From contig CAZBQD010000002.1 in the NCBI GenBank assembly GCA_964493995.1, forward strand, positions 20,901-84,900: a stretch of 64,000 nucleotides of DNA, read 5' to 3'. This document shows, piece after piece, positions 1 to 12,754 of the stretch. This DNA is from an uncultured Francisella sp. (lineage in GTDB: Bacteria; Pseudomonadota; Gammaproteobacteria; Thiomicrospirales; Thiomicrospiraceae). Positions within the stretch are counted from its first letter, which is position 1. The number at the start of each line of letters is the position of its first letter. The notes below the pieces were generated by a model. It was not told where the DNA came from. It did not search any database and worked only from the letters and a program-made list of their open reading frames with translations. Position numbers and translations under genes: made by a program.

Positions 1-1
1 A

Positions 2-1234
2 CGCATTGATAGCGCGCTACACGCCATTGAAGAAGCCAACGGCGCAAAGCTCACAGGCGTATTTCAGGGCATCAGCTTTAATACCGATAAGCTGGGCGAA
101 GAAAAACAGAAAAATGAAATCTTGCGCCACCTGCTAGAAGACTTTGCCTGCGATACCTTAGATCTGCGTCCGCACCGAATTGGCAAGCTCGACATTATTG
201 GTAACGCTTACGAGTTTCTGATTAAACACTTTGCCGCAACTTCGGGCAAGTCGGCAGGAGAATTTTATACCGCTCCAGAAGTGTCTGAGCTGCTTGCAAG
301 GGTGTTACAACCACAAGAAGGTGACCAGATTTGTGACCCGACTTGTGGCTCAGGCTCGTTATTGCTCAAATGTGCGAAACAGATTCAACAGCATTTTAAT
401 GGCTCGAAAAAATACGCGCTGTTTGGACAGGAAGCCATTGGTTCGACTTGGGCATTAGCGAAAATGAACATGTTCTTGCATGGCGAAGATAACCACCGCA
501 TTGAGTGGGGCGATACCATTCGCAACCCTAAGCTACAAGATAAAAACGGTGGACTATTGCATTTTGATGTGGTAACGGCTAATCCGCCTTTTTCGTTAGA
601 GAAGTGGGGGCATGAACATGCCGAACATGACCCTTGGGGACGTTTTGAGCGTGGCGTACCACCCAAAACCAAGGGTGATTATGCCTTTATTTTGCATATG
701 ATCGAAACGCTGAAACCACAAAGTGGGCGTATGGGCGTGGTTGTCCCGCATGGGGTGCTATTCCGTGGTTCGTCGGAAGGGGCGATTCGTACAAGGTTGA
801 TTGAAGAAAACCTGTTGGATGCGGTGATTGGACTGCCAGAAAAGTTGTTCTTCGGTACGGGTATTCCTGCCGCTATTTTGATTTTCAAAAAGCACAAAAC
901 AGACAATAGTGTTTTGTTTATCGATGCCAGCCGTGAGTACAAGTCGGAAAAGAATCAAAATAAACTCACCGACGACAACCTAAATAAAATCGTCAGCACC
1001 TACTTTGCTCGCCAAACGGTTGAAAAGTATGCTTACCTCGCCAGCTTAGACGAGATTAAAGATAATGACTACAACCTAAACATTCCGCGCTATGTCGATA
1101 CCTTTGAGGAAGAGGAAGAAATCGACCTGATGGCGGTGCGTAGCGAACGCATTGCCTTACAGGCAGAACTCAATGCGCTAGAAGCGCAAATGGAAGCTTA
1201 TTTGTTGGAATTGGGTTATGAGGCAAACGCATGA
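2..1234 (+). CDS. hsdM: Type I restriction-modification DNA methyltransferase subunit HsdM (5' end lies upstream of the window)
   Basis: The frame is open from nt 2. The translation has the SAM-binding motif DPTCGSGSLL and the N6-adenine catalytic motif NPPF (VVTANPPFS). hsdS and hsdR follow in the same operon. Confidence 0.9.
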   Translation, partial: RIDSALHAIEEANGAKLTGVFQGISFNTDKLGEEKQKNEILRHLLEDFACDTLDLRPHRIGKLDIIGNAYEFLIKHFAATSGKSAGEFYTAPEVSELLARVLQPQEGDQICDPTCGSGSLLLKCAKQIQQHFNGSKKYALFGQEAIGSTWALAKMNMFLHGEDNHRIEWGDTIRNPKLQDKNGGLLHFDVVTANPPFSLEKWGHEHAEHDPWGRFERGVPPKTKGDYAFILHMIETLKPQSGRMGVVVPHGVLFRGSSEGAIRTRLIEENLLDAVIGLPEKLFFGTGIPAAILIFKKHKTDNSVLFIDASREYKSEKNQNKLTDDNLNKIVSTYFARQTVEKYAYLASLDEIKDNDYNLNIPRYVDTFEEEEEIDLMAVRSERIALQAELNALEAQMEAYLLELGYEANA

Positions 1235-1977
1235 CATTCACGCAACTGGATCAACTTAAAGCACGGCTAGACGCTTATCGTCCGCTCGATGCCCATATTG
1301 TGCGAAACCTGCACGAGAATTTGGTTTTACAATGGACTTATCACAGTAATGCCATTGAAGGTAACACACTTACACTCAAAGAAACCAAGGTTGCGCTTGA
1401 GGGCATTACTATTGGTGGTAAAACACTGCGTGAGCATTTCGAGGTGATTAACCACAAAGAAGCGATTTTGATGGTTGAAGAGTTGGTGAGCCAACAAGCT
1501 CCGCTAACCGAGCGCGTGATTAAAGACTTGCATTATCTGGTGCTGAAAAACATTGACCAAGACAATGCAGGACGTTACCGACAGGTGAATGTGTTGATTT
1601 CGGGTGCAGAACATAAACCCGTCGATGCGCTTCATGTTCCTGAACAGATGACGACTTTTATCGACTGGTACGCCACACAAGCCGCTCACTTACATCCTGT
1701 TGAACGCGCGGCACGGGTGCATGGGGAGTTTGTGAAAATTCATCCGTTTGTTGATGGTAATGGACGCACTGCGCGATTATTGATGAATTTAGAATTGATG
1801 AAATCAGGTTTTCCTGCGGCAGTATTACCTGTCGAAAGCCGATTAGCCTATTACGAAGCCTTAGACACTGCGCATTGCAAAGGGGATTATGCGCCTTTTA
1901 TCGCCTTACTCTGCCAAGTCGTTGCCGATAGCTTTAAGCCTTACTGGTGGGCATTGGGGGTTGAAGATGTTGCCTGA
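1231..1977 (+). CDS. Fic family protein (class II, putative AMP-transferase) embedded in the type I R-M operon
   Basis: Canonical Fic motif HPFVDGNGRTARLL (nt 1741-1782). An N-terminal inhibitory-helix motif SNAIEG, of the form (S/T)xxxE(G/N), lies near nt 1345-1362. The start overlaps the hsdM stop as ATGA (1231-1234). Confidence 0.85.
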   Translation: MTFTQLDQLKARLDAYRPLDAHIVRNLHENLVLQWTYHSNAIEGNTLTLKETKVALEGITIGGKTLREHFEVINHKEAILMVEELVSQQAPLTERVIKDLHYLVLKNIDQDNAGRYRQVNVLISGAEHKPVDALHVPEQMTTFIDWYATQAAHLHPVERAARVHGEFVKIHPFVDGNGRTARLLMNLELMKSGFPAAVLPVESRLAYYEALDTAHCKGDYAPFIALLCQVVADSFKPYWWALGVEDVA

Positions 1978-3133
1978 GGGGTGGAAACGCATTCCAATTA
2001 AAGACGCTTGTGAATCAATCATTGATTGTGTAAATAAAACAGCTCCTGTTGTTGATTATGAAACTCCTTACAAAATGATTAGGACTACTAATGTTAGGCA
2101 CGGTCGTGTGGATGTAACTGATGTTCGATATGTTGCAAAGGAAACATACTTAGAGTGGACACGAAGAGGACTTCCTAAAAAAGGAGACATTATCTTCACT
2201 CGTGAAGCGCCTGTTGGCGAAGTAGGCGTTCTTGAAGATGATACTGGTGTTTTCCTTGGGCAAAGAACAATGATGTATCGTGCAGATAATAATAAAGCAA
2301 ATAATTATTATCTTTTTTACTCTTTATTAACTAAATTTTGCCAAAAACAAATTGAAGACTTTAGTAATGGTGGAACAGTTGCTCATATGAGAGTACCTGA
2401 TTGCGGTGAAATTTTAGTCAACTTACCCCCTCTCCCCGAACAAAAGAAAATCGCCCAAATCTTATCTACTTGGGATAAAGCCATCACCACCACCGAGCAA
2501 CTGATTGCCAATAGCCAACAGCAGAAAAAAGCCCTCATGAAACAACTGCTCACAGGCAAAAAACGCTTGCTTGATGATAACGGGGTTAGGTTTAGTGGGG
2601 AGTGGGAGCATTCAACTCTTAGAAATATACTGACGGTTTCTAAAGGTCAGCAACTTAATAAAGATACACTAGATTCAACAGGGCTTTATCCTGTAATTAA
2701 TGGCGGCATTACGCCATCAGGTTATACTGACCAGAAAAATAGGTCAGCAAATACAATTACCATTAGTGAAGGTGGTAATTCGTGTGGTTATGTAGCATTC
2801 CAGACAAAAGACTTTTGGTGTGGTGGGCATTGCTATTCTGCTACAAACTTAAAACTTAACCTACAGTTTACTTATCACTGTTTGAAATTTAATGAAAATA
2901 GAATCATGAAGTTAAGGGTTGGTTCTGGTTTGCCAAATATTCAGAAAAAAGACATTGATGGATTAGTAATTAAGTATCCTAACTGTCATATAGAACAACA
3001 AAAAATCGCTTCTGTTCTTTCCTCAGCAGATCGTGAAATTGAGGTGTTGCAAAGCAAGCTAACTGCACTCAAGCAAGAGAAAATATCCCTGATGCAACAG
3101 TTGTTGACAGGGAAACGGAGAGTTATTGTATGA
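1967..3133 (+). CDS. hsdS: Type I R-M specificity subunit HsdS
   Basis: Two variable target-recognition regions are separated by duplicated conserved helices (EQKKIAQILSTWDKAI...LMKQLLTGKKRL and EQQKIASVLSSADREI...LMQQLLTGKRRV). I chose the ATG at 1967 (MLPEGWKRIP) because the ORF-track start at 1889 lies inside fic. It overlaps the fic stop by 11 nt. Confidence 0.85.
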   Translation: MLPEGWKRIPIKDACESIIDCVNKTAPVVDYETPYKMIRTTNVRHGRVDVTDVRYVAKETYLEWTRRGLPKKGDIIFTREAPVGEVGVLEDDTGVFLGQRTMMYRADNNKANNYYLFYSLLTKFCQKQIEDFSNGGTVAHMRVPDCGEILVNLPPLPEQKKIAQILSTWDKAITTTEQLIANSQQQKKALMKQLLTGKKRLLDDNGVRFSGEWEHSTLRNILTVSKGQQLNKDTLDSTGLYPVINGGITPSGYTDQKNRSANTITISEGGNSCGYVAFQTKDFWCGGHCYSATNLKLNLQFTYHCLKFNENRIMKLRVGSGLPNIQKKDIDGLVIKYPNCHIEQQKIASVLSSADREIEVLQSKLTALKQEKISLMQQLLTGKRRVIV

Positions 3134-4494
3134 CTGTTAGCTTTAACTCAAGAGATGAGTTTCAACGCCAACCAATCGCTCAGAAGCTAATAAAACTATT
3201 GGCTAGTGATGTGAATGTTTCCCCTATGGTCATTGATGGGCCGTGGGGGTCAGGTAAAACTGAATTTACTCTTAAATTAATTGATCTTTTTCAGAATAAA
3301 GAGCCTTCCTTTAATTTAATTTACATTGATGCATTTAAGGCTGACCATGCCGATAATCCTTTAATGATGGTACTGGCAGAAATCATAAAACACCTTCCTG
3401 AAGAGCAGAAGGATTCAGTAATTGATAAAGCAATTCCTGCTATTCGCTCTCTTTCAAAAACCATAGCAAAAGCTGCAACAAGCTGGATTCTAAGGCAAGA
3501 CAGCGCAGATATTATTGAAGATTTTGAATCCGAGATTAAAGAGGCATCAGATAGCTTAATTGATTATTCTGTTGAACAGCTTCTGAAGTCTCACATTGAA
3601 GCCGATAAGAACTTAACAGCTTTGCAAAAATTACTAGAAGAAATTTCAAAAGACGAGCCAATAATACTATTTATTGATGAATTAGACCGATGCCGTCCAG
3701 ACTTCTCAGTTTCTACTCTAGAGACCATTAAGCATGTTTTCAATGTTCCAAATGTTCAATTCGTTTTGATTACAAATCAAAGCCAACTTTTGGCATCCGT
3801 TAAGCACATCTATGGTTCACAACTCGATGCAAAGCGTTATCTTGATAAGTTCCTCAGATTTTCATTTAAGTTATCCTCAACCGTTGGAACTAATAGCCAT
3901 AATCTACAACATGCGTCTGAGATTTATTTCAGCAATTTGATAGTTAAAAGCGATGTCTTAAAAGACAGTGTTTTTAGAGAGCAGGCTGGACGTGGAATTA
4001 TTGGATTTGGCATCGATTTAGTCAAAAATCATCACTTATCATTAAGAGAGGTTGAGACTTTTGTTCGCTACATTGAAATTTATCATACCCTTTCTGAAGG
4101 CTTTTCTAAGAACCTCATCTTGGGATATGGGTTACTTCGAGTAATAGGGGTTTTTATTTATTCTTTTGCAAGTGGATTTGCGAAAGAACTTGATAGAGAC
4201 ATTGTAAGTGGTTACAGCGTTAATGAATTCTTCGGAAAAACTGACCTTATTGACATTGAAAATACGAAACCGAAAAATTACATGCAAATAATTCATGCAA
4301 TGTTTGCGATGGAATTAAATATGCATTCTGATAGTTACGATAAATTCGAGAAGCCTTTACAGAATCTAAAACCAAATTGGAATGTTCATTTTGGTTCAAT
4401 GTTCAGCGGGAGTTTTCATTACTATGCTGACGAAGGTAATCTAATTCACGTAAAGTCAGCCATTCGTGAACTAATGATGCTTTCATGTAACTAG
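3130..4494 (+). CDS. KAP family P-loop NTPase
   Basis: Walker A GPWGSGKT (nt 3238-3261) and the KAP-type Walker B IILFIDELDRCRP (nt 3661-3699), with YLDKFLRFSF downstream. The start overlaps the hsdS stop as ATGA (3130-3133). No hydrophobic transmembrane insert is visible between Walker A and Walker B. Confidence 0.8.
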   Translation: MTVSFNSRDEFQRQPIAQKLIKLLASDVNVSPMVIDGPWGSGKTEFTLKLIDLFQNKEPSFNLIYIDAFKADHADNPLMMVLAEIIKHLPEEQKDSVIDKAIPAIRSLSKTIAKAATSWILRQDSADIIEDFESEIKEASDSLIDYSVEQLLKSHIEADKNLTALQKLLEEISKDEPIILFIDELDRCRPDFSVSTLETIKHVFNVPNVQFVLITNQSQLLASVKHIYGSQLDAKRYLDKFLRFSFKLSSTVGTNSHNLQHASEIYFSNLIVKSDVLKDSVFREQAGRGIIGFGIDLVKNHHLSLREVETFVRYIEIYHTLSEGFSKNLILGYGLLRVIGVFIYSFASGFAKELDRDIVSGYSVNEFFGKTDLIDIENTKPKNYMQIIHAMFAMELNMHSDSYDKFEKPLQNLKPNWNVHFGSMFSGSFHYYADEGNLIHVKSAIRELMMLSCN

Positions 4495-4504
4495 AAGTAG
4501 CCTT

Positions 4505-4597
4505 ATGACCCAACCCATCGCCCAATTCCACGAAGAAGTCGGTGAAAACTTGATGACAATTTGCAGCACCAACTTGGATCAATGCCATGTTAAATGA
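4505..4597 (+). pseudogene. Remnant of an hsdR 5' end (30-codon ORF, MTQPIAQFHEEV...)
   Basis: nt 4505-4544 match the true hsdR start at 6518-6557 at 38 of 40 positions. The first 12 codons are identical, then the sequences diverge and a stop occurs at 4595-4597. The remnant sits 10 nt after the KAP stop. Confidence 0.55.
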
Positions 4598-6521
4598 ATA
4601 CTCCGCCGAATCTTTGCTCGAGCAGCTCCGTGAACTGGATGAGCATCCTCGTCTTGAGGCGAAAAGCGGTTCACAAATAGGCGCATCGGTAATGCAAACC
4701 GTGTGTGCGTTCGCGAATGAGCCGAATTTAGGCGGTGGTTACTTGCTGTTGGGTGTCGAAGAACCAGATGAAGCACATGTTAAGTTTTGGATGTCTGGGT
4801 TGTCTGATACTGACAAGTTATTAAATGAATTGCAAAACAACTGCCGAGAACAGTTTGAGCAGCCGATTTCAGTTAAGGCAGAAGTAGCGACTTTAGAAGA
4901 TAAGCGCGTTATTTTAATTTATGTACCAGAGCTGGAGTCAGCTGCCAAACCTTGTACCTTTAAGGGTAAGTTTGATAGTAAAAACAAAAGAAAAACAGGG
5001 GTATGGCGTCGTGGCTTAAATGGCGATTATGAGTGTTCTCAGCAAGAGCTAACGCCGTTGTTATTAGCTAAAAATGGTGTGAGTTATGAGCAAGTTGTTC
5101 TCGATGATGCCGAAATGGACGACTTAGATGCCAGCGTGATCACCTTATACCGAAACCTTCGCGCTAAAGTATCGCCGCAGGCCGAGGAATTATTGGCCGA
5201 TGATTTAGAACTGTTACGTGCGTTGCAACTTATCAAGAAACAACATGGCGAATTCAAACCCACTATTGCGGGTCTGCTTTTATTTGGTAAGCCTTTGGCT
5301 TTACGTCGCTTATTACCAGCGGTACGCGTGGATTATATTCGAGTACATGGAACACAGTGGGTTGAAAATCCAGAACAACGGTTTGCCTATACTCAAGACT
5401 TTCGTCAACCCATTATTAGCTTGATCTCTAAACTTGAAGCCACTATTTTGGATGATATGCCGCGCTATTTTCGACTAAATGAAGGCGAAACACAGCGTTC
5501 GGATACACCTCTTCTCCCTCAAAGGGTGGTGCGTGAGGCTGTCGTCAATGCCTTGATGCACCGAGATTATTTTGTTAATCAGCCAACTTTGGTGGTTCGG
5601 TTTAGCAATCGATTAGAAATTCGTAACGCCGGTTATTCACTCAAACCAGAAAACCAGTTAGGGGAGATGGGTTCTAAGCTTCGCAATCCGATTTTGGCCT
5701 CGGTGTTGTATGATCTTAACTTTGCCGAGACCAAGGGTTCAGGAATTCGAACTATGCGACGCTTGTTGCATGAGGTTGGATTGAGTGCACCTGTGTTTGT
5801 GAATCATCAAATTGAAAATCAGTTCACATCAATCTATTTGTTGCATCAGTTGATGGGGGAAGATCAACTCACATGGCTTAAACAGTTTTCTCATTTGTGC
5901 TTGTCTGACGATGAAGCCAAGGCGTTGACCCTTGCGAAGGAAACAGGTGCAGTTGATAATGCGGCCTTAAGATCTATTACGGATCTTGATACGCTGGCGG
6001 CAAGCCGTGTTTTAACGAAGCTGACCCATCAAAAAGGGTTACTTATGCAGGGTGGTGCTGGTGCATCGACCTATTATCAGCTATCAGTGCTGTCGAATAT
6101 GCCGCTCTTTGATGTGGCAAATACGAGTGACCTAGAACCAAATACAGGTGACTTCGACTCAAATACAGGTGACTTCAACTCAAATACAGGTGAGCTAGAT
6201 GTTAATAGAGATGACCTACCAGAAGCATTGCACAATGCTATTAAAGAACTAACTCCTAAAGCAAGAAAAAACGTTTTATGGCCAATTATTATCTGGCTGT
6301 GTGCGCTAAGCCCTATGTCGGCTGACAAATTAGCACACATTATTGGCAGACAAATTAACGCATTAAAAGCAAGTCATCTAACTCAATTGAGAGAAAAAGA
6401 GGGCTACATTCAATATCTTTACCCAGAGGTCATCAATCATCCTGAACAGGCTTATATCTCAACAGAGTCTGGCAAGCAGTGGCTAAAACAGCAAACCATT
6501 TATAGTGATTCGAACTCATGA
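4587..6521 (+). CDS. AlbA_2 (Schlafen-like) domain plus HATPase_c_4 (RecG-like C-terminal) domain protein, putative nucleic-acid-binding ATPase or regulator
   Basis: The N-terminal signature EHPRLEAKSG...VCAFANEPNLGGGYLLLGVEE is typical of AlbA_2. The central REAVVNALMHRDYFVNQPTLVVRFSNRLEIRNAGY is typical of HATPase_c_4. The stop overlaps the hsdR start as ATGA (6518-6521). Confidence 0.7.
   Translation: MLNEYSAESLLEQLRELDEHPRLEAKSGSQIGASVMQTVCAFANEPNLGGGYLLLGVEEPDEAHVKFWMSGLSDTDKLLNELQNNCREQFEQPISVKAEVATLEDKRVILIYVPELESAAKPCTFKGKFDSKNKRKTGVWRRGLNGDYECSQQELTPLLLAKNGVSYEQVVLDDAEMDDLDASVITLYRNLRAKVSPQAEELLADDLELLRALQLIKKQHGEFKPTIAGLLLFGKPLALRRLLPAVRVDYIRVHGTQWVENPEQRFAYTQDFRQPIISLISKLEATILDDMPRYFRLNEGETQRSDTPLLPQRVVREAVVNALMHRDYFVNQPTLVVRFSNRLEIRNAGYSLKPENQLGEMGSKLRNPILASVLYDLNFAETKGSGIRTMRRLLHEVGLSAPVFVNHQIENQFTSIYLLHQLMGEDQLTWLKQFSHLCLSDDEAKALTLAKETGAVDNAALRSITDLDTLAASRVLTKLTHQKGLLMQGGAGASTYYQLSVLSNMPLFDVANTSDLEPNTGDFDSNTGDFNSNTGELDVNRDDLPEALHNAIKELTPKARKNVLWPIIIWLCALSPMSADKLAHIIGRQINALKASHLTQLREKEGYIQYLYPEVINHPEQAYISTESGKQWLKQQTIYSDSNS
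6120..6203 (+). repeat. In-frame 21-bp tandem repeat, 4 units, encoding NTSDLEP/NTGDFDS/NTGDFNS/NTGELDV
   Basis: Units 6141-6161 and 6162-6182 differ at one position. The flanking units are more diverged. The repeat lies in a linker of the AlbA_2 protein. Confidence 0.85.
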
Positions 6522-9500
6522 CACAACCCATCGCCCAATTCCACGAAGAAGTCAGTGCTAAACTGCCAGCCCTAACATTGCTAACCAATCTCGGTTATCA
6601 GTTTATCTCGCCACAACAAGCACTGGAAATGCGTGAGTCTTTATCATCGGTTGTGCTGGTCGATGTACTGCGCGAGGTATTGCAACAGAAGTCTATTGAT
6701 TTTCAGGGTAAGCGTTATCCCTTGTCCGATGCAGCCATTTACAACATTATTCATCAGCTCTCGCACCCTGCCATGAATGAAGGGTTACGCATTGCCAATG
6801 AAAAGCTGTATGACACCCTCACTTATGGCGTCAATATTACCGAATTTATCGAAGGTAAAAAGGTTCACGCCACCATTCAGCTCATCGACTGGGACGCACC
6901 GAGCAATAACCGCTTTCACTTCACCGAAGAGTTTGAGGTGCTCAATACGCACGGTATCGGCAAGCGTATCCCCGATATTGTCTGCTTTGTAAATGGCTTG
7001 CCTTGGGTGGTGATTGAAGCAAAGCGTCCCGATGCTTCACATACAGGCAAACCAACGGTTGAAGAAGGCATTTCGCAAAATATTCGCAACCAAAAAGTCG
7101 ATGAAATTCCGCATTTGTTTGCCTACGCCCAATTGTTATTAGCGGTGAATGGGCATGAAGGGCTATATGGAACTTGTGGCACACCTGCTAAGTTTTGGGC
7201 GAAGTGGAAAGAGGAACACATCAGCGAAGCCGACTTCTCGTCACTGAAAAACCAACGCCTAACGTCAGCACAACTAGAAACCATTTTTGCTCATCGAACG
7301 ACCAAGCAAAAACAAGATTATTTATCTTTGCTGGCGGGTGGTGAGTTATTGGTCACGGATCAGGATCGTTTGATTGTTGCCTTGCTAACCCCCGAACGAT
7401 TACTGGAAACGACACGCTTGTTTACGCTGTTCGATAAAAAGTCGGGTAAGATTGTCGCGCGTTATCAGCAGGTATTTGGCATTAAAGCCCTCGTTGAACG
7501 TATTTCAACCTTTGATGATAAAGGCGCACGTAATGGCGGAGTGATTTGGCATACCACAGGTTCGGGTAAGTCATTTACGATGGTATTTTTAGCCAAAGCG
7601 TTAATTTGGTTAGAAGCACTAGCCAAGTGCAGAGTGGTAGTGGTCACCGATAGAGTCGATTTAGAAGATCAACTGGCACGTACCTTTGCTTCAGGTGGGG
7701 CATTGTCGGATAAAGACAAAAAAGATGCCATGGCAACCACTGGCAAGCGTTTGGCAGAACAAATTGGTAAAGGTAACGAACGCATTATCTTCTCGATCAT
7801 TAATAAGTTTGGCACAGCAGTCGGTTTACCTGAGTGCTATAACGATAGCCCCGATATAATTGTACTGGTGGACGAAGGACACCGTAGCCAAAATGGTGAA
7901 AATAACATTCGGATGCAACAAGCCTTACCCAAAGCGGCTTTTGTTGCCTTTACAGGAACACCATTACTCAAAGACGACAAAACCGAGAATAAATTCGGGC
8001 AGATTCTTCATTCCTACACCATGCAACAAGCCGTTGCCGATGGTACGGTCACGCCCTTGTTGTATGAAGAGCGTATTCCCGAACTGAATACCAATGATGC
8101 AGCAATTGATGCGTGGTTTGATCGTATTTCGTCCCCCTTAAGCGATAAGCAAAAAAGTGACTTGAAGAAAAAGTTTGCGCAAAAAGGTCAGGTGTACCAA
8201 GCTGAAGGACGGATTGAACTGATCGCTTATGATATTTCTGATCACTTTCTGAACTTTAAGGCGTTAGGGTTAAAAGGGCAATTAGCCTGTGACTCTAAAG
8301 CCTCTGCTATTCGTTACAAGCAATTGCTGGATAAGATTGGTAAGGTGACATCGGTCGTCGCTATGTCGCCTCCCGATACACGCGAAGGACATGATGACAT
8401 AGACACAGAAAGCAGCGACTTGGTGCAAAACTGGTGGAAATCAAATGTCGGTTCGCAAGATGAAAAAGCTTATACCAAGAACATTATTGCCGCTTTTGCT
8501 AAAGAAGACGGTCCTGACCTTATGATTGTTGTCGATAAGTTGCTAACGGGCTTTGATGAACCTAAAAATACCGTTCTTTACATTGATAAACCGCTGAAAC
8601 AGCATAACCTGATTCAAGCCATTGCGCGTGTTAATCGCTTACACGCGCAAAAGCAATTTGGTTATTTGATTGATTACCGCGGCATTCTCAAGGAATTGGA
8701 TACCACCATTGCCGACTATCAAGATTTAGCCAAACGTACCCAAGGTGGTTTCGATATAGACGACTTAAAAGGTTTGTATCAGCAAATGGAAACGGAATAT
8801 AAGAAGCTTCCACGGTTATACAGCGAACTCTGGGCTGTATTTGCCGATGTGCGTAACAAGCAAGATGGTGCGGCATTGCGGGCGCATCTTGCACCCAAGA
8901 TGGACAATATTGATGGTCAGGTGGTCGATACAAATCTTAAAAAGCGTGATGATTTTTATGAAGCACTCACCAGCTTTACCAATGTGTTAAAAGTGGCATT
9001 GCAATCGGCGAGTTATTTTGACGATAAGAGCTTTGACAGTAAGCGGCAGGTGTATAAAGACACCTTAAAAATGATGGTGCAACTGCGTCAACAAGTACGC
9101 CAAGACGCCGAAGAAACAGTCGATTACGACCAATATGCTAACGACATTAAAGCATTACTTGATAAGCATATCGGTGGACTTAGGGTGTTAGAAGCGGAAG
9201 GGGTTTATCTGGTGGGTGATATGGGCATAAAAGTGCAACCCGACACCATGACAGATGAAGAGGCACGCAATAAGAAAGATGTCATTACAGGTCGTGTCAC
9301 GCGCATGATTGAACAGGACTTAGCTGATGATCCCTACGCTCAGGCTCATTTTTCTAAAATGTTGAAAGATGCCATTGAGCAAGCTAAAGCCATGTTCGAC
9401 GCACCTGTGAAGCAATATATGTTGTTTGCGGATTTTGAACAAAAAGTAAAAGACAGAAACGTCGAGGGCGTACCACAAGACAAGTTAGCAAAAATTGACC

Positions 9501-9787
9501 CATCAACCAAACGTCATGTACAGGCTTACTATGGCTTGTTTTTGAAGCATTACGAAGCGGGTTTACCGATTAGTGAAGAGAGCTGTTTTGACTATGCCAT
9601 TAAAATTGATGAAGTGGTACGAAAGTCGGTCGCTGAGTATTCCATCAATCCACAGGAAATTGAAAACCAAATTACCATTGGTCTGTTACCCCTATTGTTC
9701 CAAGACTTGGGTATCGAAAAGGCACAGGCGATCATTCACGATGTGATCAAAATTACCCGTTTAGGATTGGCGGGATACAGGGCATAA
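6518..9787 (+). CDS. hsdR: Type I restriction enzyme endonuclease/translocase subunit HsdR
   Basis: 1089 aa. Contains a PD-(D/E)xK-like nuclease motif PDIVCFVNGLPWVVIEAKRP, helicase motif I HTTGSGKSFT, and motif II VLVDEGHRSQ. Confidence 0.92.
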   Translation: MTQPIAQFHEEVSAKLPALTLLTNLGYQFISPQQALEMRESLSSVVLVDVLREVLQQKSIDFQGKRYPLSDAAIYNIIHQLSHPAMNEGLRIANEKLYDTLTYGVNITEFIEGKKVHATIQLIDWDAPSNNRFHFTEEFEVLNTHGIGKRIPDIVCFVNGLPWVVIEAKRPDASHTGKPTVEEGISQNIRNQKVDEIPHLFAYAQLLLAVNGHEGLYGTCGTPAKFWAKWKEEHISEADFSSLKNQRLTSAQLETIFAHRTTKQKQDYLSLLAGGELLVTDQDRLIVALLTPERLLETTRLFTLFDKKSGKIVARYQQVFGIKALVERISTFDDKGARNGGVIWHTTGSGKSFTMVFLAKALIWLEALAKCRVVVVTDRVDLEDQLARTFASGGALSDKDKKDAMATTGKRLAEQIGKGNERIIFSIINKFGTAVGLPECYNDSPDIIVLVDEGHRSQNGENNIRMQQALPKAAFVAFTGTPLLKDDKTENKFGQILHSYTMQQAVADGTVTPLLYEERIPELNTNDAAIDAWFDRISSPLSDKQKSDLKKKFAQKGQVYQAEGRIELIAYDISDHFLNFKALGLKGQLACDSKASAIRYKQLLDKIGKVTSVVAMSPPDTREGHDDIDTESSDLVQNWWKSNVGSQDEKAYTKNIIAAFAKEDGPDLMIVVDKLLTGFDEPKNTVLYIDKPLKQHNLIQAIARVNRLHAQKQFGYLIDYRGILKELDTTIADYQDLAKRTQGGFDIDDLKGLYQQMETEYKKLPRLYSELWAVFADVRNKQDGAALRAHLAPKMDNIDGQVVDTNLKKRDDFYEALTSFTNVLKVALQSASYFDDKSFDSKRQVYKDTLKMMVQLRQQVRQDAEETVDYDQYANDIKALLDKHIGGLRVLEAEGVYLVGDMGIKVQPDTMTDEEARNKKDVITGRVTRMIEQDLADDPYAQAHFSKMLKDAIEQAKAMFDAPVKQYMLFADFEQKVKDRNVEGVPQDKLAKIDPSTKRHVQAYYGLFLKHYEAGLPISEESCFDYAIKIDEVVRKSVAEYSINPQEIENQITIGLLPLLFQDLGIEKAQAIIHDVIKITRLGLAGYRA

Positions 9788-10533
9788 TGCAACAGCAATG
9801 TGAGTTATTCAGCTTCGTCTATGGTGAAGAAGCGATTCCGTATCGGGTGCTATGGTTGCCCGATCAGGCGGCTGAAAAGGTGAAGATTAAAGTCTACCCT
9901 AATGCAGAGGTGCTGGTTAATGCACCAGCACAAACCTCACCAGAACAGATTCATCAAGCTGTGATGAAACGTGCTCGGTGGATATGGCAGTCTGTCAGCA
10001 ACTTTCAGCAAAGCCGTGCTGATGTCACAGAAAAACATTATCAAAGTGGCGACATGATGTTTTACCTTGGTCGCCGCTATGTGCTCAAAGTGATGCAAAC
10101 TGATGACAAACCTAGGGTAAAATTGAACCAAGGACAGTTGCAAGTATACTTACCAGATAGCGAGCAACAGCGTCAACAGCAAGTAGAGCGTTTGGTCAAC
10201 CGATGGTATCGCCAGCAAGCCGAGCGTGTTTTTCGTGAACGTATTGAAGCGTTACTGTCACAAACTGATTGGGTAACAGAAGTGCCACCATTCAAGATCA
10301 TTTCTATGCAGAAACAATGGGGCAGTTGTTCTATTAAAGGTTGTTTAATGCTCAATCCGCATTTAATTAAAGCCGCTAAACCCTGTATCGATTATGTGAT
10401 TTTGCACGAACTATGTCACCTAGCCGAACACAATCATTCTGAGCGTTTCTGGAAGCTCCTAACCTTGGTTATGCCCAATTGGAAAGCACACAAGGCTAGG
10501 CTCGATGGGATGGCAGAGTTGTATCTTAAATAA
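9787..10533 (+). CDS. YgjP/DUF45-like (M48/WLM-type) zinc metallopeptidase
   Basis: HExxH motif in ILHELCHLAEHNHSERFW. The start overlaps the hsdR stop as TAATG (9785-9789). Confidence 0.8.
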   Translation: MQQQCELFSFVYGEEAIPYRVLWLPDQAAEKVKIKVYPNAEVLVNAPAQTSPEQIHQAVMKRARWIWQSVSNFQQSRADVTEKHYQSGDMMFYLGRRYVLKVMQTDDKPRVKLNQGQLQVYLPDSEQQRQQQVERLVNRWYRQQAERVFRERIEALLSQTDWVTEVPPFKIISMQKQWGSCSIKGCLMLNPHLIKAAKPCIDYVILHELCHLAEHNHSERFWKLLTLVMPNWKAHKARLDGMAELYLK

Positions 10534-10553: not shown

Positions 10554-11828
10554 TTAACGCGGATAGCGTTCTCCCTCTTGTGGCAATCGGTATTGATAAG
10601 GTTTGTTCGCTGATTCCGTAACGCTTTGCTTCACTTGACTCATTTGTTCTTTCAAACTCTGTTGCAATAGGCGTAATTCAGCCATTTCCTGACGCAAGCG
10701 CGTTAATTGATCCATAATCGGTTTGGTATCGACAACAGCCGTTACATTGGGGGTTGTTTTGCCTGTTTCAGCAGCGGGAGTAGGGAGTTTGGCCAAACGT
10801 GCTGCCAGTTTTTCATCCATTTGAGAAGCGACTTGTTGCCATTGCTGGTTTTGTGCTTGCGCTTGCGCAATGGCGTTTTGTTCCATTTGCTGCAACTGCT
10901 GACTCAACTGATCGACTTGCGTGAGCAATTGTTGCCAGGCTTCTGCAGAAGGGGCGGTCACTTTTGCCACAGTGGCATTATTGTTTTGCTGTACCGGCTC
11001 TGCTGGTGTAACGGCCGTCGTTGGTGCCAGAATTGGGCTGGGTGCGGGTGCCGCGTTAGGCGTCATAACCGGTGCTGAGGCGACGGTGTGATTGGCATCC
11101 GCCATCAGCGTAGGTTCAGTTGCGTTGTTTGCTTGAGTTGGCGTATCTTCTACCACTGACGCAACCACACCATCTTGTGGCGATTCGCTAGATGCAGTGG
11201 AAGGCGTCATGTCGATTTTGTTGAGCTTCATCTGCTCAATACTGGCTTGCATCTGCTCAATGGTACTGGCCAATTCATCCAGTTTGAGGGTCAGGGTTTT
11301 GCTGACAATCGTTTGATGTTCATCGACATTTTCTAAAATGGCGTTCGACATACTGACGAAGCTGGCACGACTTTGTAGCATCACGCCAATGGTCGTACCA
11401 AAGCCCGCAACCGCAATTAAGCCACTAATAAGCGTGAGAATAATGATGTTCTTCTTCGTCGCACTGACTTCTTGTACCGCTTGACGGGTGGCATGGCGCC
11501 AACCACTGGCGGCATCACTCAACTCTTTGATGCTTTCTTGTTGTTCTTTAGCCAGTTCAATATTTTTTCGCGTCGCTTCTTGTGACAGTTGCGTACCTTC
11601 GTGTAAGGCACGACTGGCTGCTTCAATGACATCTGCCCAGGTTTGCGAAGCTCGATGCGCCTCATCATGAGAAGGCTCAGGCTGCACCGCAGCGTGAACC
11701 ACCTTGGCTGAAGACAGCTCTTCCTGCGATGGCGCTTGCGACCCTTTCGCTAGGGGGGCAGATGCGAGATTCGTTTTAGGATTATCTAACAGATTATCTA
11801 AATCGTCTAAATAATTATGTGTGGACAA
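10554..11828 (-). CDS. Hypothetical membrane-anchored coiled-coil protein with an A/P/T/Q-rich low-complexity region
   Basis: 424-aa ORF with a single hydrophobic segment IIILTLISGLIAVAGFGTTIGVML. Heptad-like, Q-rich stretches flank it. I recognise no family motif. Confidence 0.5.
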   Translation of the reverse strand: MSTHNYLDDLDNLLDNPKTNLASAPLAKGSQAPSQEELSSAKVVHAAVQPEPSHDEAHRASQTWADVIEAASRALHEGTQLSQEATRKNIELAKEQQESIKELSDAASGWRHATRQAVQEVSATKKNIIILTLISGLIAVAGFGTTIGVMLQSRASFVSMSNAILENVDEHQTIVSKTLTLKLDELASTIEQMQASIEQMKLNKIDMTPSTASSESPQDGVVASVVEDTPTQANNATEPTLMADANHTVASAPVMTPNAAPAPSPILAPTTAVTPAEPVQQNNNATVAKVTAPSAEAWQQLLTQVDQLSQQLQQMEQNAIAQAQAQNQQWQQVASQMDEKLAARLAKLPTPAAETGKTTPNVTAVVDTKPIMDQLTRLRQEMAELRLLQQSLKEQMSQVKQSVTESANKPYQYRLPQEGERYPR

Positions 11829-11857
11829 GGGCGTACCCTCCTGTTTGGCGCGAGGCG

Positions 11858-12754
11858 TTAGAGACGAGACAATTCTTGACGAATTTTAGCGTTGCGCTGA
11901 CTGATGTCATCCGTTTTTTCGGCGACTTGTTGCGCTTTAATACGCCAATCGTCTTCTGTCCAGCCAAGCGTTTGCGGGGTTGCCAAGCTGGTACCCAAGG
12001 CGGCAGAAAGTTGCGCTAACTGTTTTTGTGGGCTGTTGGCTAGCTGTTCGGCCAGTTGTTGCTGTTGATTGGTTACTGTGTCTAGCAGCACATCTAATTG
12101 TGCCAGACTTTGTTGTGGACCCTTGTGTTCGCCTTCTTGGCGTAATTGCATCCAGTCTTGCAAGGCTTGAATGGCGTTCGCCACCACCGCTTGCAAATGT
12201 TCGGCAATCGGAGCTGTATCGCCAAGTGATGGTGTAATGGCATGATTCGCTGGAGTCTCACTCATCACTGGCTCTTCAACAATTTCTTCAGCCACTTCAT
12301 CAGTGATGGCTAGACCATCACATTCTTGACTATCGGCATCGCTCATATCATGGGTATCGGCTAAGTCTGCTGGTGGGAATTCTTCATCACTGGCTTGAGT
12401 GAATGTCGTTTCTAGGTCTTCATCAAAGCTCAGACCTGCCAGTTCATCCTGTTCTTCTAAGCTGTCTAAGCCTTCAAGCAGTTGCGTGGTCTCATCGTTA
12501 TCGGCCATTTCGAGCACTTCTGTGTCTGTTGTTTCGGCAAGCTCCATCGTCGATAAGGCTTCCAGTTCTTCATCGAATGTGGCCGAAGTTGGCGGTGTGT
12601 CACTGCTGCTTTCATCGAGCGTTAGGGTGTCGATCAGTTCCGTTTCATCGTGCGTTTCATCGGCAATGAGGACATCATCGACTTCGACGCCTTCAAACAT
12701 TTTTAACATTTCTTCTGTCGCTAAAGCGTCTTGATCTAGGTTTTCGTTCGACAT
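11858..12754 (-). CDS. Hypothetical highly acidic (D/E/T-rich) protein with a C-terminal coiled coil
   Basis: 298-aa ORF. The first ~160 aa are dominated by D/E/T/L. The C-terminus (QQQLAEQLANSPQKQLAQL...) looks helical. It lies directly upstream of 10554-11828 on the same strand. Confidence 0.5.
   Translation of the reverse strand: MSNENLDQDALATEEMLKMFEGVEVDDVLIADETHDETELIDTLTLDESSSDTPPTSATFDEELEALSTMELAETTDTEVLEMADNDETTQLLEGLDSLEEQDELAGLSFDEDLETTFTQASDEEFPPADLADTHDMSDADSQECDGLAITDEVAEEIVEEPVMSETPANHAITPSLGDTAPIAEHLQAVVANAIQALQDWMQLRQEGEHKGPQQSLAQLDVLLDTVTNQQQQLAEQLANSPQKQLAQLSAALGTSLATPQTLGWTEDDWRIKAQQVAEKTDDISQRNAKIRQELSRL

Follow-up and report, generated by a model that had tools for sequence, protein, structure and literature searches.

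The first 10,533 positions of a 64,000-nt stretch of DNA from an uncultured Francisella sp. (contig CAZBQD010000002.1; hereafter the window, with positions 1-10533 being the locus studied) are filled by seven co-oriented open reading frames (ORFs), which comprise a Type I restriction-modification (R-M) operon and three further genes embedded between its subunit genes. In order along the plus strand, the ORF map reads hsdM, fic, hsdS, a KAP-family NTPase gene, a gene for a 'Schlatpase' (a Schlafen domain plus a GHKL ATPase; 10.64898/2026.05.29.728809), hsdR and ygjP, with a remnant of the hsdR 5′ end in front of the Schlatpase gene. Domains were assigned by Pfam, PADLOC and NCBIfam profile searches of the window proteins, and Pfam recovered every domain named in the original prediction, which had been made from the sequence alone and had read the gene order in the same way.

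Architecture of the Type I R-M operon

All three components of the R-M enzyme are encoded by uninterrupted ORFs in one operon. The methyltransferase gene hsdM (2-1234; Pfam N6_Mtase, 1e-107; TIGR00497 hsdM, 1.6e-83) is cut by the left edge of the window, with 410 of ~505 amino acids (aa) present, and the 5′ end of the operon and its promoter are located beyond that edge. The specificity subunit HsdS (1967-3133; 388 aa; Pfam Methylase_S, 1e-45) aligns to the PADLOC Specificity_I model (4.7e-97) from residue 1 of this 388-aa form. It has two target-recognition domains (TRDs; 1985-2425 and 2608-2990, both with a GC content of 0.35), and its alignment with relatives is restricted to the central and C-terminal conserved regions. 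HsdR (6518-9787; 1,089 aa), the restriction and translocase subunit, combines a nuclease (HSDR_N, 1e-42) with an SF2 translocase (SWI2_SNF2, 8e-74, with T1R_D3-like and ResIII matches), matches the PADLOC REase_I model over its full length and has only a distant relationship to the HsdR of EcoR124I.

The junctions between these genes are mostly overlaps, all of which were present on direct reading of the sequence as originally predicted. ATGA overlaps join hsdM to fic (1231-1234), hsdS to the KAP gene (3130-3133) and the Schlatpase gene to hsdR (6518-6521), while fic and hsdS share 11 nt (1967-1977) and a TAATG at 9785-9789 provides a 1-nt overlap between hsdR and ygjP. The same overlaps are seen at the same junctions of related loci, and are therefore a conserved property of this operon family. 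Promoter- and terminator-like sites inside the locus showed no excess (counts at or below the shuffled expectation), such that the scan was uninformative, and zero Rfam families reached their gathering score across the whole window. Given the single strand, the overlapping stops and starts and the lack of predicted internal terminators, the originally proposed co-expression of the cargo genes with hsd is plausible.

A conserved backbone with variable slots

An HsdR scan restricted to one genome per species yielded 80 related loci (66-82% identity), mostly from marine Gammaproteobacteria, the ORFs of which were mapped and then labelled via BLASTP against the window proteins. The usual gene order across these loci is hsdM-hsdS-(variable cargo)-hsdR-ygjP. 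The last gene, encoding an M48/SprT-like zinc metallopeptidase (9787-10533; 248 aa; Pfam YgjP-like, 4e-57), directly follows hsdR in 77 of the 80 loci, which assigns it to the core of this hsdR family instead of to the inserted genes. In relatives where the junction was read, the two genes overlap or are no more than 14 nt apart. The original prediction had counted four embedded non-R-M genes; fic, the KAP gene and the Schlatpase gene are indeed embedded, whereas ygjP is terminal and part of the backbone. YgjP has an intact HELCH (HExxH) motif, together with weak similarity to SprT/WLM and a weak match to proabylysin, and may be a backbone partner of HsdR, perhaps a protease acting on it. The pair extends to Escherichia coli, where 551 of 5,426 complete genomes (~10%) encode an hsdR with 63-65% nt identity to that of the window, followed by a gene annotated as M48 family metallopeptidase.

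Embedded ORFs were counted in the 72 loci having both hsdM and hsdR, and were present in 66 of these. Nearly all share the orientation of hsd (156 of 161 ORFs). They group into 54 protein clusters, and the clusters with a PADLOC defence-model match to their representative hold 116 of the 161 ORFs; many of the embedded ORFs in related loci are short or fragmentary. Septu (PtuA/PtuB) is the most frequent of the known systems recognised through cluster representatives, which also include a CBASS cyclase with a 2TM effector, Olokun (OloA/OloB), SIR2-HerA, dGTPase, AbiD, AbiZ and Gabija GajA, and candidate cargo is represented by PDC-S02, PDC-S05, PDC-S13, PDC-S14, PDC-S26 and PDC-S63. E. coli cargo in this backbone (e.g. 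L106, L107) comprises a YecA-family protein, or DUF2188 with a nucleotidyltransferase and SLATT. The same type of position was used in the 'guilt by embedding' approach of Payne et al. (2024), in which PADLOC PDC models were built from genes inside BREX, DISARM and Type I R-M (10.1101/2024.01.29.577857). The Fic, KAP and Schlatpase genes of the window are likewise located between hsd genes, on the plus strand, and many loci that share the backbone lack them.

Near-identical backbones carry different cargo

Close relatives of the locus are found among other contigs in its 90%-identity HsdR cluster (L103, L104 and L105), and the backbone DNA of these loci and the window is 91-95% identical. L103 matches the window at 94% over 1-1984 (hsdM-fic, with hsdM also at 94% nt identity) and at 93% over 6518-10524 (hsdR-ygjP). 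Between these blocks it encodes a DUF2188 protein, a DncV-like cyclase, a 204-aa ORF and a SAVED protein (CBASS), with homology breaking in hsdS TRD1 and precisely at the hsdR ATG, and neither the scar nor a Schlatpase was found in L103. In L104 and L105, SIR2-HerA takes the place of KAP and is followed by the hsdR′ scar and a Schlatpase gene that has lost 1,280 bp internally. The deletion joins the equivalents of window positions 4504-4711 and 5992-6517 and leaves a 219-aa ORF. L005, a Francisella metagenome-assembled genome (HsdR 82% identity), has hsdS, the scar, ~1.25 kb of decayed Schlatpase sequence and hsdR. The remnants in L104, L105 and L005 indicate that the hsdR′-Schlatpase-hsdR module is older than these lineages, and the deletion and the decay indicate that the Schlatpase was inactivated at least twice with hsdMSR intact. 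This repeated loss implies that R-M is independent of the Schlatpase. To judge from these alignments, the slot upstream of the scar has been refilled independently, with KAP in the window and SIR2-HerA in L104 and L105, and is empty in L005. Fic, found in the same position in L005, L103, L104 and L105, is the sole cargo that is stable in this sub-lineage.

The trio of Fic, KAP and Schlatpase was found solely in contigs identical to the window, and was absent from the 80 HsdR-related loci and from four other contigs with an HsdR at least 90% identical. This mix is unique among the places searched, and we reject the trio as a recurring system. The original idea of one composite system is therefore not borne out, and neither is a stable partnership of its parts, since backbones 91-95% identical to that of the window carry CBASS or SIR2-HerA instead of KAP and have a deleted Schlatpase or none.

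Two side observations concern L103. Its positions 1-2597 encode two tyrosine-recombinase/integrase genes (Integrase_2, Phage_integrase) directly upstream of the Type I locus, and its downstream flank is unlike that of the window, which suggests that the whole operon is on a mobile island. In addition, a DUF2188 ORF is located after hsdS and before a CBASS-like nucleotidyltransferase and effector in both L103 (6857-9990) and L106 (6474-8631), such that a DUF2188-first cassette looks recurrent between this Thiotrichales-like relative and E. coli PM22.

The embedded proteins

The Schlatpase (4587-6521; 644 aa) consists of an AlbA_2 domain (PF04326, 7e-14; residues 22-127), a GHKL ATPase domain (HATPase_c_4, PF13749, 4e-14; residues 337-409) and two C-terminal winged helices. 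It matches the N-terminal module of SLFN-pAgo in PADLOC (2e-24; residues 30-404), its N-domain is strongly matched by PDB 2kyy (121 residues, E = 1.2e-20), and 3lmm is also matched by sequence. A structure model of the protein resembles 3lmm, the SLFN13 N-domain, the SAMD9 tRNase domain and MarR-type winged helix-turn-helix (wHTH) folds; with a pLDDT of 71 and a pTM of 0.40, the model is usable for domain-level fold matches and not for the domain arrangement. Across 37 homologs (56-80% identity), the Schlafen-side residues E19, E24, K26 and E45 are invariant, as are E317, N321, H325-Y328, N347, G349 and K383-G386, which include the GHKL ATP-binding motifs. The linker between the two winged-helix domains is encoded by tandem repeats (four 21-nt units at 6118-6222, detected by a repeat search) that specify NTGDF(D/N)S-type heptads, and its residues 503-542 have low pLDDT and are disordered. 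N-T-x-D-L repeats are also present in the family consensus, and linker length may thus differ between homologs.

In 15 of 18 loci and six of nine lineages, Schlatpase homologs (58-79% identity) occupy the hsdS-hsdR slot of this backbone, which is a small sample given that the metagenome scan yielded 10 loci, several of them redundant. The embedded homologs are from Hydrogenovibrio, Microbulbifer, Edwardsiella, Legionella and metagenomic lineages, and are mostly immediately 5′ of hsdR with a 4-nt overlap, while three homologs (L092, L100 and L102) stand alone.

The Schlatpase gene is preceded by an hsdR 5′ scar and leader ORF (4502-4597). The hsdR remnant noted in the original prediction is real, with 4502-4544 repeating 6515-6557 at 93% over 43 nt, and it additionally opens a 30-codon ORF (4505-4597; MTQPIAQFHEEVGENLMTICSTNLDQCHVK, followed by a stop) that ends 8 nt past the Schlatpase ATG and so overlaps the start of the gene by 11 nt. 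The same scar is found upstream of the Schlatpase sequences of L104, L105 and L005. In Hydrogenovibrio L085, the Schlatpase of which is 79% identical, an 85-nt leader (L085 7917-8003) of the same length and frame encodes the same residue at 14 of 28 codons, with several of the changes being synonymous, and the hsdR 5′ end of L085 itself is different. The conservation of the leader despite a different local hsdR 5′ end indicates that it travels with the Schlatpase gene, and it appears from this comparison to be more than a dead scar. No hsdR-type scar was found before the Schlatpase genes of Microbulbifer, Legionella, Edwardsiella or the L093 group, the last of which has a different short upstream ORF with a TGATG overlap at the Schlatpase start. 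Both the Schlatpase and hsdR starts are without good Shine-Dalgarno sequences, which fits translational coupling.

The KAP protein (3130-4494; 454 aa) is a P-loop NTPase that matches the candidate defence model PDC-S20 over its full length (PADLOC, 3.6e-159; residues 3-450 against positions 6-448 of 450), with weak similarity to PifA and QatA. Its KAP_NTPase domain (Pfam, 1.1e-49; residues 13-320) has an intact Walker A motif (GPWGSGKT, residue 37) and an intact Walker B motif (ILFIDELD, near residue 179), and a single moderately hydrophobic stretch is located at ~329-347 (Kyte-Doolittle 1.86). Past the NTPase domain there are ~130 aa, as opposed to the 322-aa C-terminal region of EF_KAP; phage defence by a single KAP gene has been shown experimentally, with EF_KAP requiring this fused region (PMC13552941). 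The GC content of the gene (0.357, versus ~0.44-0.47 for backbone genes) suggests a foreign origin. KAP homologs with ~45% identity are located directly before hsdR in six other loci, with the KAP stop 3-17 nt from the hsdR ATG, and the KAP stop of the window is 10 nt ahead of the scar ATG.

In the Fic protein (1231-1977; 248 aa; Pfam Fic, 2e-24), the canonical motif HPFVDGNGRTAR occurs at residue 171, and an inhibitory motif of the class II type, SNAIEG, at residue 39. Its best PADLOC match is PDC-S04 (2.8e-40; residues 28-216 against positions 8-201 of 227), followed by SoFic (1e-33). Window Fic and SoFic are both class II Fic proteins with an HxFx(D/E)GNGRxxR motif and an N-terminal inhibitory (S/T)xxxE(G/N) helix; however, the C-terminal region of SoFic is missing from window Fic, which is therefore not an ortholog. 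Assignment as a SoFic equivalog was accordingly rejected (NF046030, 34.3 bits versus a cutoff of 550; 248 aa versus a 361-position profile).

Two further features of the surrounding DNA were recorded. Directly past ygjP, two convergent ORFs (424 aa and 298 aa) on the minus strand occupy 10554-12754 with no Pfam match at 1e-5, and beyond these are EamA, an asparaginase-like gene, IspA and Mla transport genes; this right flank (EamA, IspA, Mla) is housekeeping and convergent. In many loci of the backbone family, a half-size ORF (~200 aa) is positioned directly upstream of hsdM (L085 3551-4141, L087 4605-5204, L089 3446-4048, L103 2776-3384, L104 185-823 and L106 3059-3646). This ORF is HsdS-like in several loci and is annotated as 'restriction endonuclease subunit S' in E. 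coli PM22, and the corresponding region of the window is outside its left edge.

Proposed cassette exchange at conserved junctions

Scars of the hsdR 5′ end were detected in three of 81 loci (the window, L005 and L066), and each sits between stacked cargo units, the order in L066 being CBASS, scar, AbiD. A second conserved feature is found at the start of hsdS, where the last 11 nt of the preceding gene overlap hsdS whichever gene this is (hsdM, Fic, PDC-S02, PDC-S13 and others; L004-L083). This coupling junction, consisting of an ATG, 5 nt and a stop, is strictly conserved. We also considered whether the tail of Fic (ALGVEDVA, then stop) duplicates the one usually seen in hsdM (ELGYGA, then stop), a likeness that is suggestive only; it is the 11-nt overlap that is strictly conserved instead.

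From the junction scars, we infer that the cargo was put together piecemeal by recombination. The internal junctions hsdM/hsdS and hsdS/hsdR would serve as landing slots for defence-gene cassettes, which would be swapped between Type I loci by recombination in conserved flanks, namely the end of hsdM together with the beginning of hsdS, the conserved parts of hsdS, and the opening ~40 nt of hsdR. Exchange at these junctions would preserve translational coupling, and unequal events would leave junction duplicates. Stacking would thereby leave scars, with the hsdR′ scar before the Schlatpase marking one such event and potentially acting as a second right-hand homology arm.

Relation to known embedded systems

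The nearest described counterpart is the RRDM island of enteropathogenic E. coli (EPEC) E2348/69, which is arranged as rptR-hsdM-hsdS-darT-darG-hsdR-M48, with the same backbone order as the window and same-strand cargo between hsdS and hsdR, a site termed a potential recombination hotspot for defence systems (PMC12255303). The cargo differs in that RRDM carries DarTG2, whereas the window has KAP and the Schlatpase there and Fic between hsdM and hsdS. In the guilt-by-embedding study, which covered genes inside Type I R-M, BREX, DISARM and Hma systems, cargo was oriented like its host system in 96.7% of cases, as in the window, and the slot also hosted known systems, as in the relatives of the window (10.1101/2024.01.29.577857). 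Fic and KAP match candidate models of that study (PDC-S04 and PDC-S20), whereas PADLOC v2 contains no PDC model for the Schlatpase, and the paper describes neither junction scars nor stacking. TgvAB on Vibrio pathogenicity island 2 (VPI-2) of Vibrio cholerae is a characterised case of embedding in Type I R-M, being an independent defence module nested between Type I subunit genes that complements restriction, as we suppose for the window cargo; it is a GmrSD-like Type IV restriction system, and experiments showed that it functions when the nuclease activity of HsdR is absent (PMC11411939).

The original prediction had compared the embedded genes with the anticodon nuclease PrrC and with PARIS. 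PrrC, encoded in EcoprrI, has an ABC-ATPase-like N-domain and a HEPN anticodon nuclease. The Schlatpase resembles it in being a putative tRNA-targeting enzyme encoded between hsdS and hsdR and a possible latent backup; in contrast, the two have no sequence relationship, and the Schlatpase combines Schlafen, GHKL and wHTH domains and is dispensable in close relatives. PrrC homology of the window proteins was rejected, as no PrrC model was matched in PADLOC at E <= 1e-3 and the Pfam domains differ, and no window protein matched AriA or AriB of PARIS in PADLOC. In Campylobacter jejuni, the Rlo genes are likewise nested between Type I subunit genes.

Relatives of the Schlatpase include SLFN-pAgo and the R-M-associated Schlafen-ATPases, which have the same two-domain core, conserved acidic residues and GHKL motifs. 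A C-terminal HTH is present in most small Schlatpases and R-M linkage has been reported for them, both of which also apply to the window protein. SLFN-pAgo differs in its Argonaute sensor, the place of which is presumably taken here by the winged-helix pair. The Schlafen domain of SLFN-pAgo and Cash is a tRNA-cleaving abortive-infection effector (10.64898/2026.05.29.728809; PMC13462974), and Weickert et al. found Schlafen-ATPase-DNA-binding proteins to be tightly associated with R-M, leaving their activation mechanism unexplained (PMC13462974).

The locus thus adds an instance of an arrangement that was already known, and does not amount to a new system. The original statement that it had not been described is mistaken at the level of kind, given the PDC candidates (10.1101/2024.01.29.577857) and the RRDM island (PMC12255303). 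Its proposal of extra defence layers is by comparison reasonable, as the PADLOC search placed all three embedded proteins in known or candidate anti-phage families (Fic in PDC-S04 and SoFic, KAP in PDC-S20 and the Schlafen-GHKL protein in the SLFN-pAgo module).

Interpretation and alternatives

Based on these comparisons, we propose that the locus, as a Type I R-M operon with the hsdM-hsdS-hsdR-ygjP backbone, probably carries stacked, exchangeable defence cargo in a known hotspot. The cargo would consist of three single-gene elements, a self-inhibited class II Fic AMPylase, a KAP P-loop NTPase and a Schlafen-GHKL-wHTH Schlatpase, all transcribed from the hsd promoter and translationally coupled. 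R-M would form the first line by cutting unmodified DNA, and the cargo proteins an independent second line, mostly of abortive-infection-type effectors. Fic would AMPylate a translation factor, and the Schlatpase would oligomerise via ATP and cleave tRNA.

Several points weigh against this proposal. The defence activity of these alleles, their co-transcription and their autonomy are predictions. Fic is stably kept beside hsdM in this sub-lineage. KAP is without an obvious effector domain and adjoins hsdR in all six other loci, such that a partner may be required, and the bias of the Schlatpase to the site directly 5′ of hsdR, together with its hsdR-derived leader, would fit a specific partnership. 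Finally, TgvAB of V. cholerae gave 10-100-fold less protection without the surrounding cluster, so synergy does exist in at least one case (PMC11411939).

Alternatively, one or more embedded proteins may be held latent by the Hsd complex, or sense its inhibition or cleavage products, and fire as a backup in the manner of PrrC once anti-restriction proteins of a phage disable R-M, an explanation we regard as unlikely. The best candidate would be the Schlatpase, as a putative tRNase and analogue of PrrC. PrrC is also positioned between hsdS and hsdR, the Schlatpase module travels with an hsdR-derived leader ORF, the Schlafen domains of Cash and SLFN-pAgo cleave tRNA, and Weickert et al. speculate that R-M-linked Schlafens detect structures arising from DNA cleavage (PMC13462974); moreover, KAP has no effector region of its own and always adjoins hsdR, and TgvAB performs better inside its full cluster. 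However, L104, L105 and L005 have a deleted or decayed Schlatpase and L103 has none, all with intact hsdMSR; the Schlatpase occurs in just one of the 80 loci of the closest HsdR clade, and it has stand-alone homologs outside R-M. The same slot hosts the fully autonomous CBASS, Septu and Gabija, and the cargo proteins have no PrrC or AriA/AriB homology.

Similarly doubtful is the narrower possibility that the Schlatpase family (640 aa) and its leader ORF constitute a dedicated HsdR partner in this Type I family, a latent ATP-gated tRNase that would be a functional analogue of PrrC, with KAP acting similarly via HsdR. Its twin winged-helix domains would then sense DNA ends or a stalled or inhibited HsdR, and the bias of the Schlatpase and KAP to the site 5′ of hsdR would reflect function and not only insertion history.

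It is quite improbable that the embedded proteins and YgjP serve the R-M enzyme as accessory or regulatory subunits, with the Schlatpase as a transcriptional regulator of the operon, KAP as an assembly or loading NTPase and YgjP degrading HsdR for restriction alleviation during establishment or after DNA damage. The near-universal presence of YgjP beside hsdR (77/80), its intact HExxH motif and the two winged-helix domains of the Schlatpase are in line with such roles, as is ClpXP proteolysis of HsdR, which is cited as an established control of EcoKI in the account given by PMC12255303. The sporadic occurrence of Fic, KAP and the Schlatpase among near-identical backbones indicates, in contrast, that the R-M enzyme does not need them, and the invariant Schlafen and GHKL catalytic residues argue for an enzyme rather than a mere repressor. 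The part of this explanation that concerns YgjP is compatible with our proposal of exchangeable defence cargo.

Least probable is that the embedded genes are non-defence hitch-hikers, selfish toxin-like or decaying passengers of an addictive R-M operon with no anti-phage benefit, since the repeated inactivation of the Schlatpase in relatives, the numerous short or fragmentary embedded ORFs in related loci and the capacity of Fic proteins to be toxins are set against three full-length ORFs with intact catalytic motifs, the conservation of the cargo families at 55-80% identity across wide taxonomic ranges, the 116 of 161 embedded ORFs of relatives in defence-matching clusters and the demonstrated phage defence by members of the Fic, KAP and Schlafen families.

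Significance

The locus provides a further well-resolved example of a Type I R-M operon carrying exchangeable defence genes. Together, the window, L103 and L104/L105 constitute a natural allelic series on one backbone, with KAP and the Schlatpase, CBASS, and SIR2-HerA with a deleted Schlatpase, respectively. The junction scars and the leader would be evidence for the swapping and stacking of cassettes with translational coupling kept. As an intact R-M-embedded example, the Schlatpase of the window may be suitable for asking whether such Schlafens depend on restriction, a question about their trigger that was raised in the 2026 papers.

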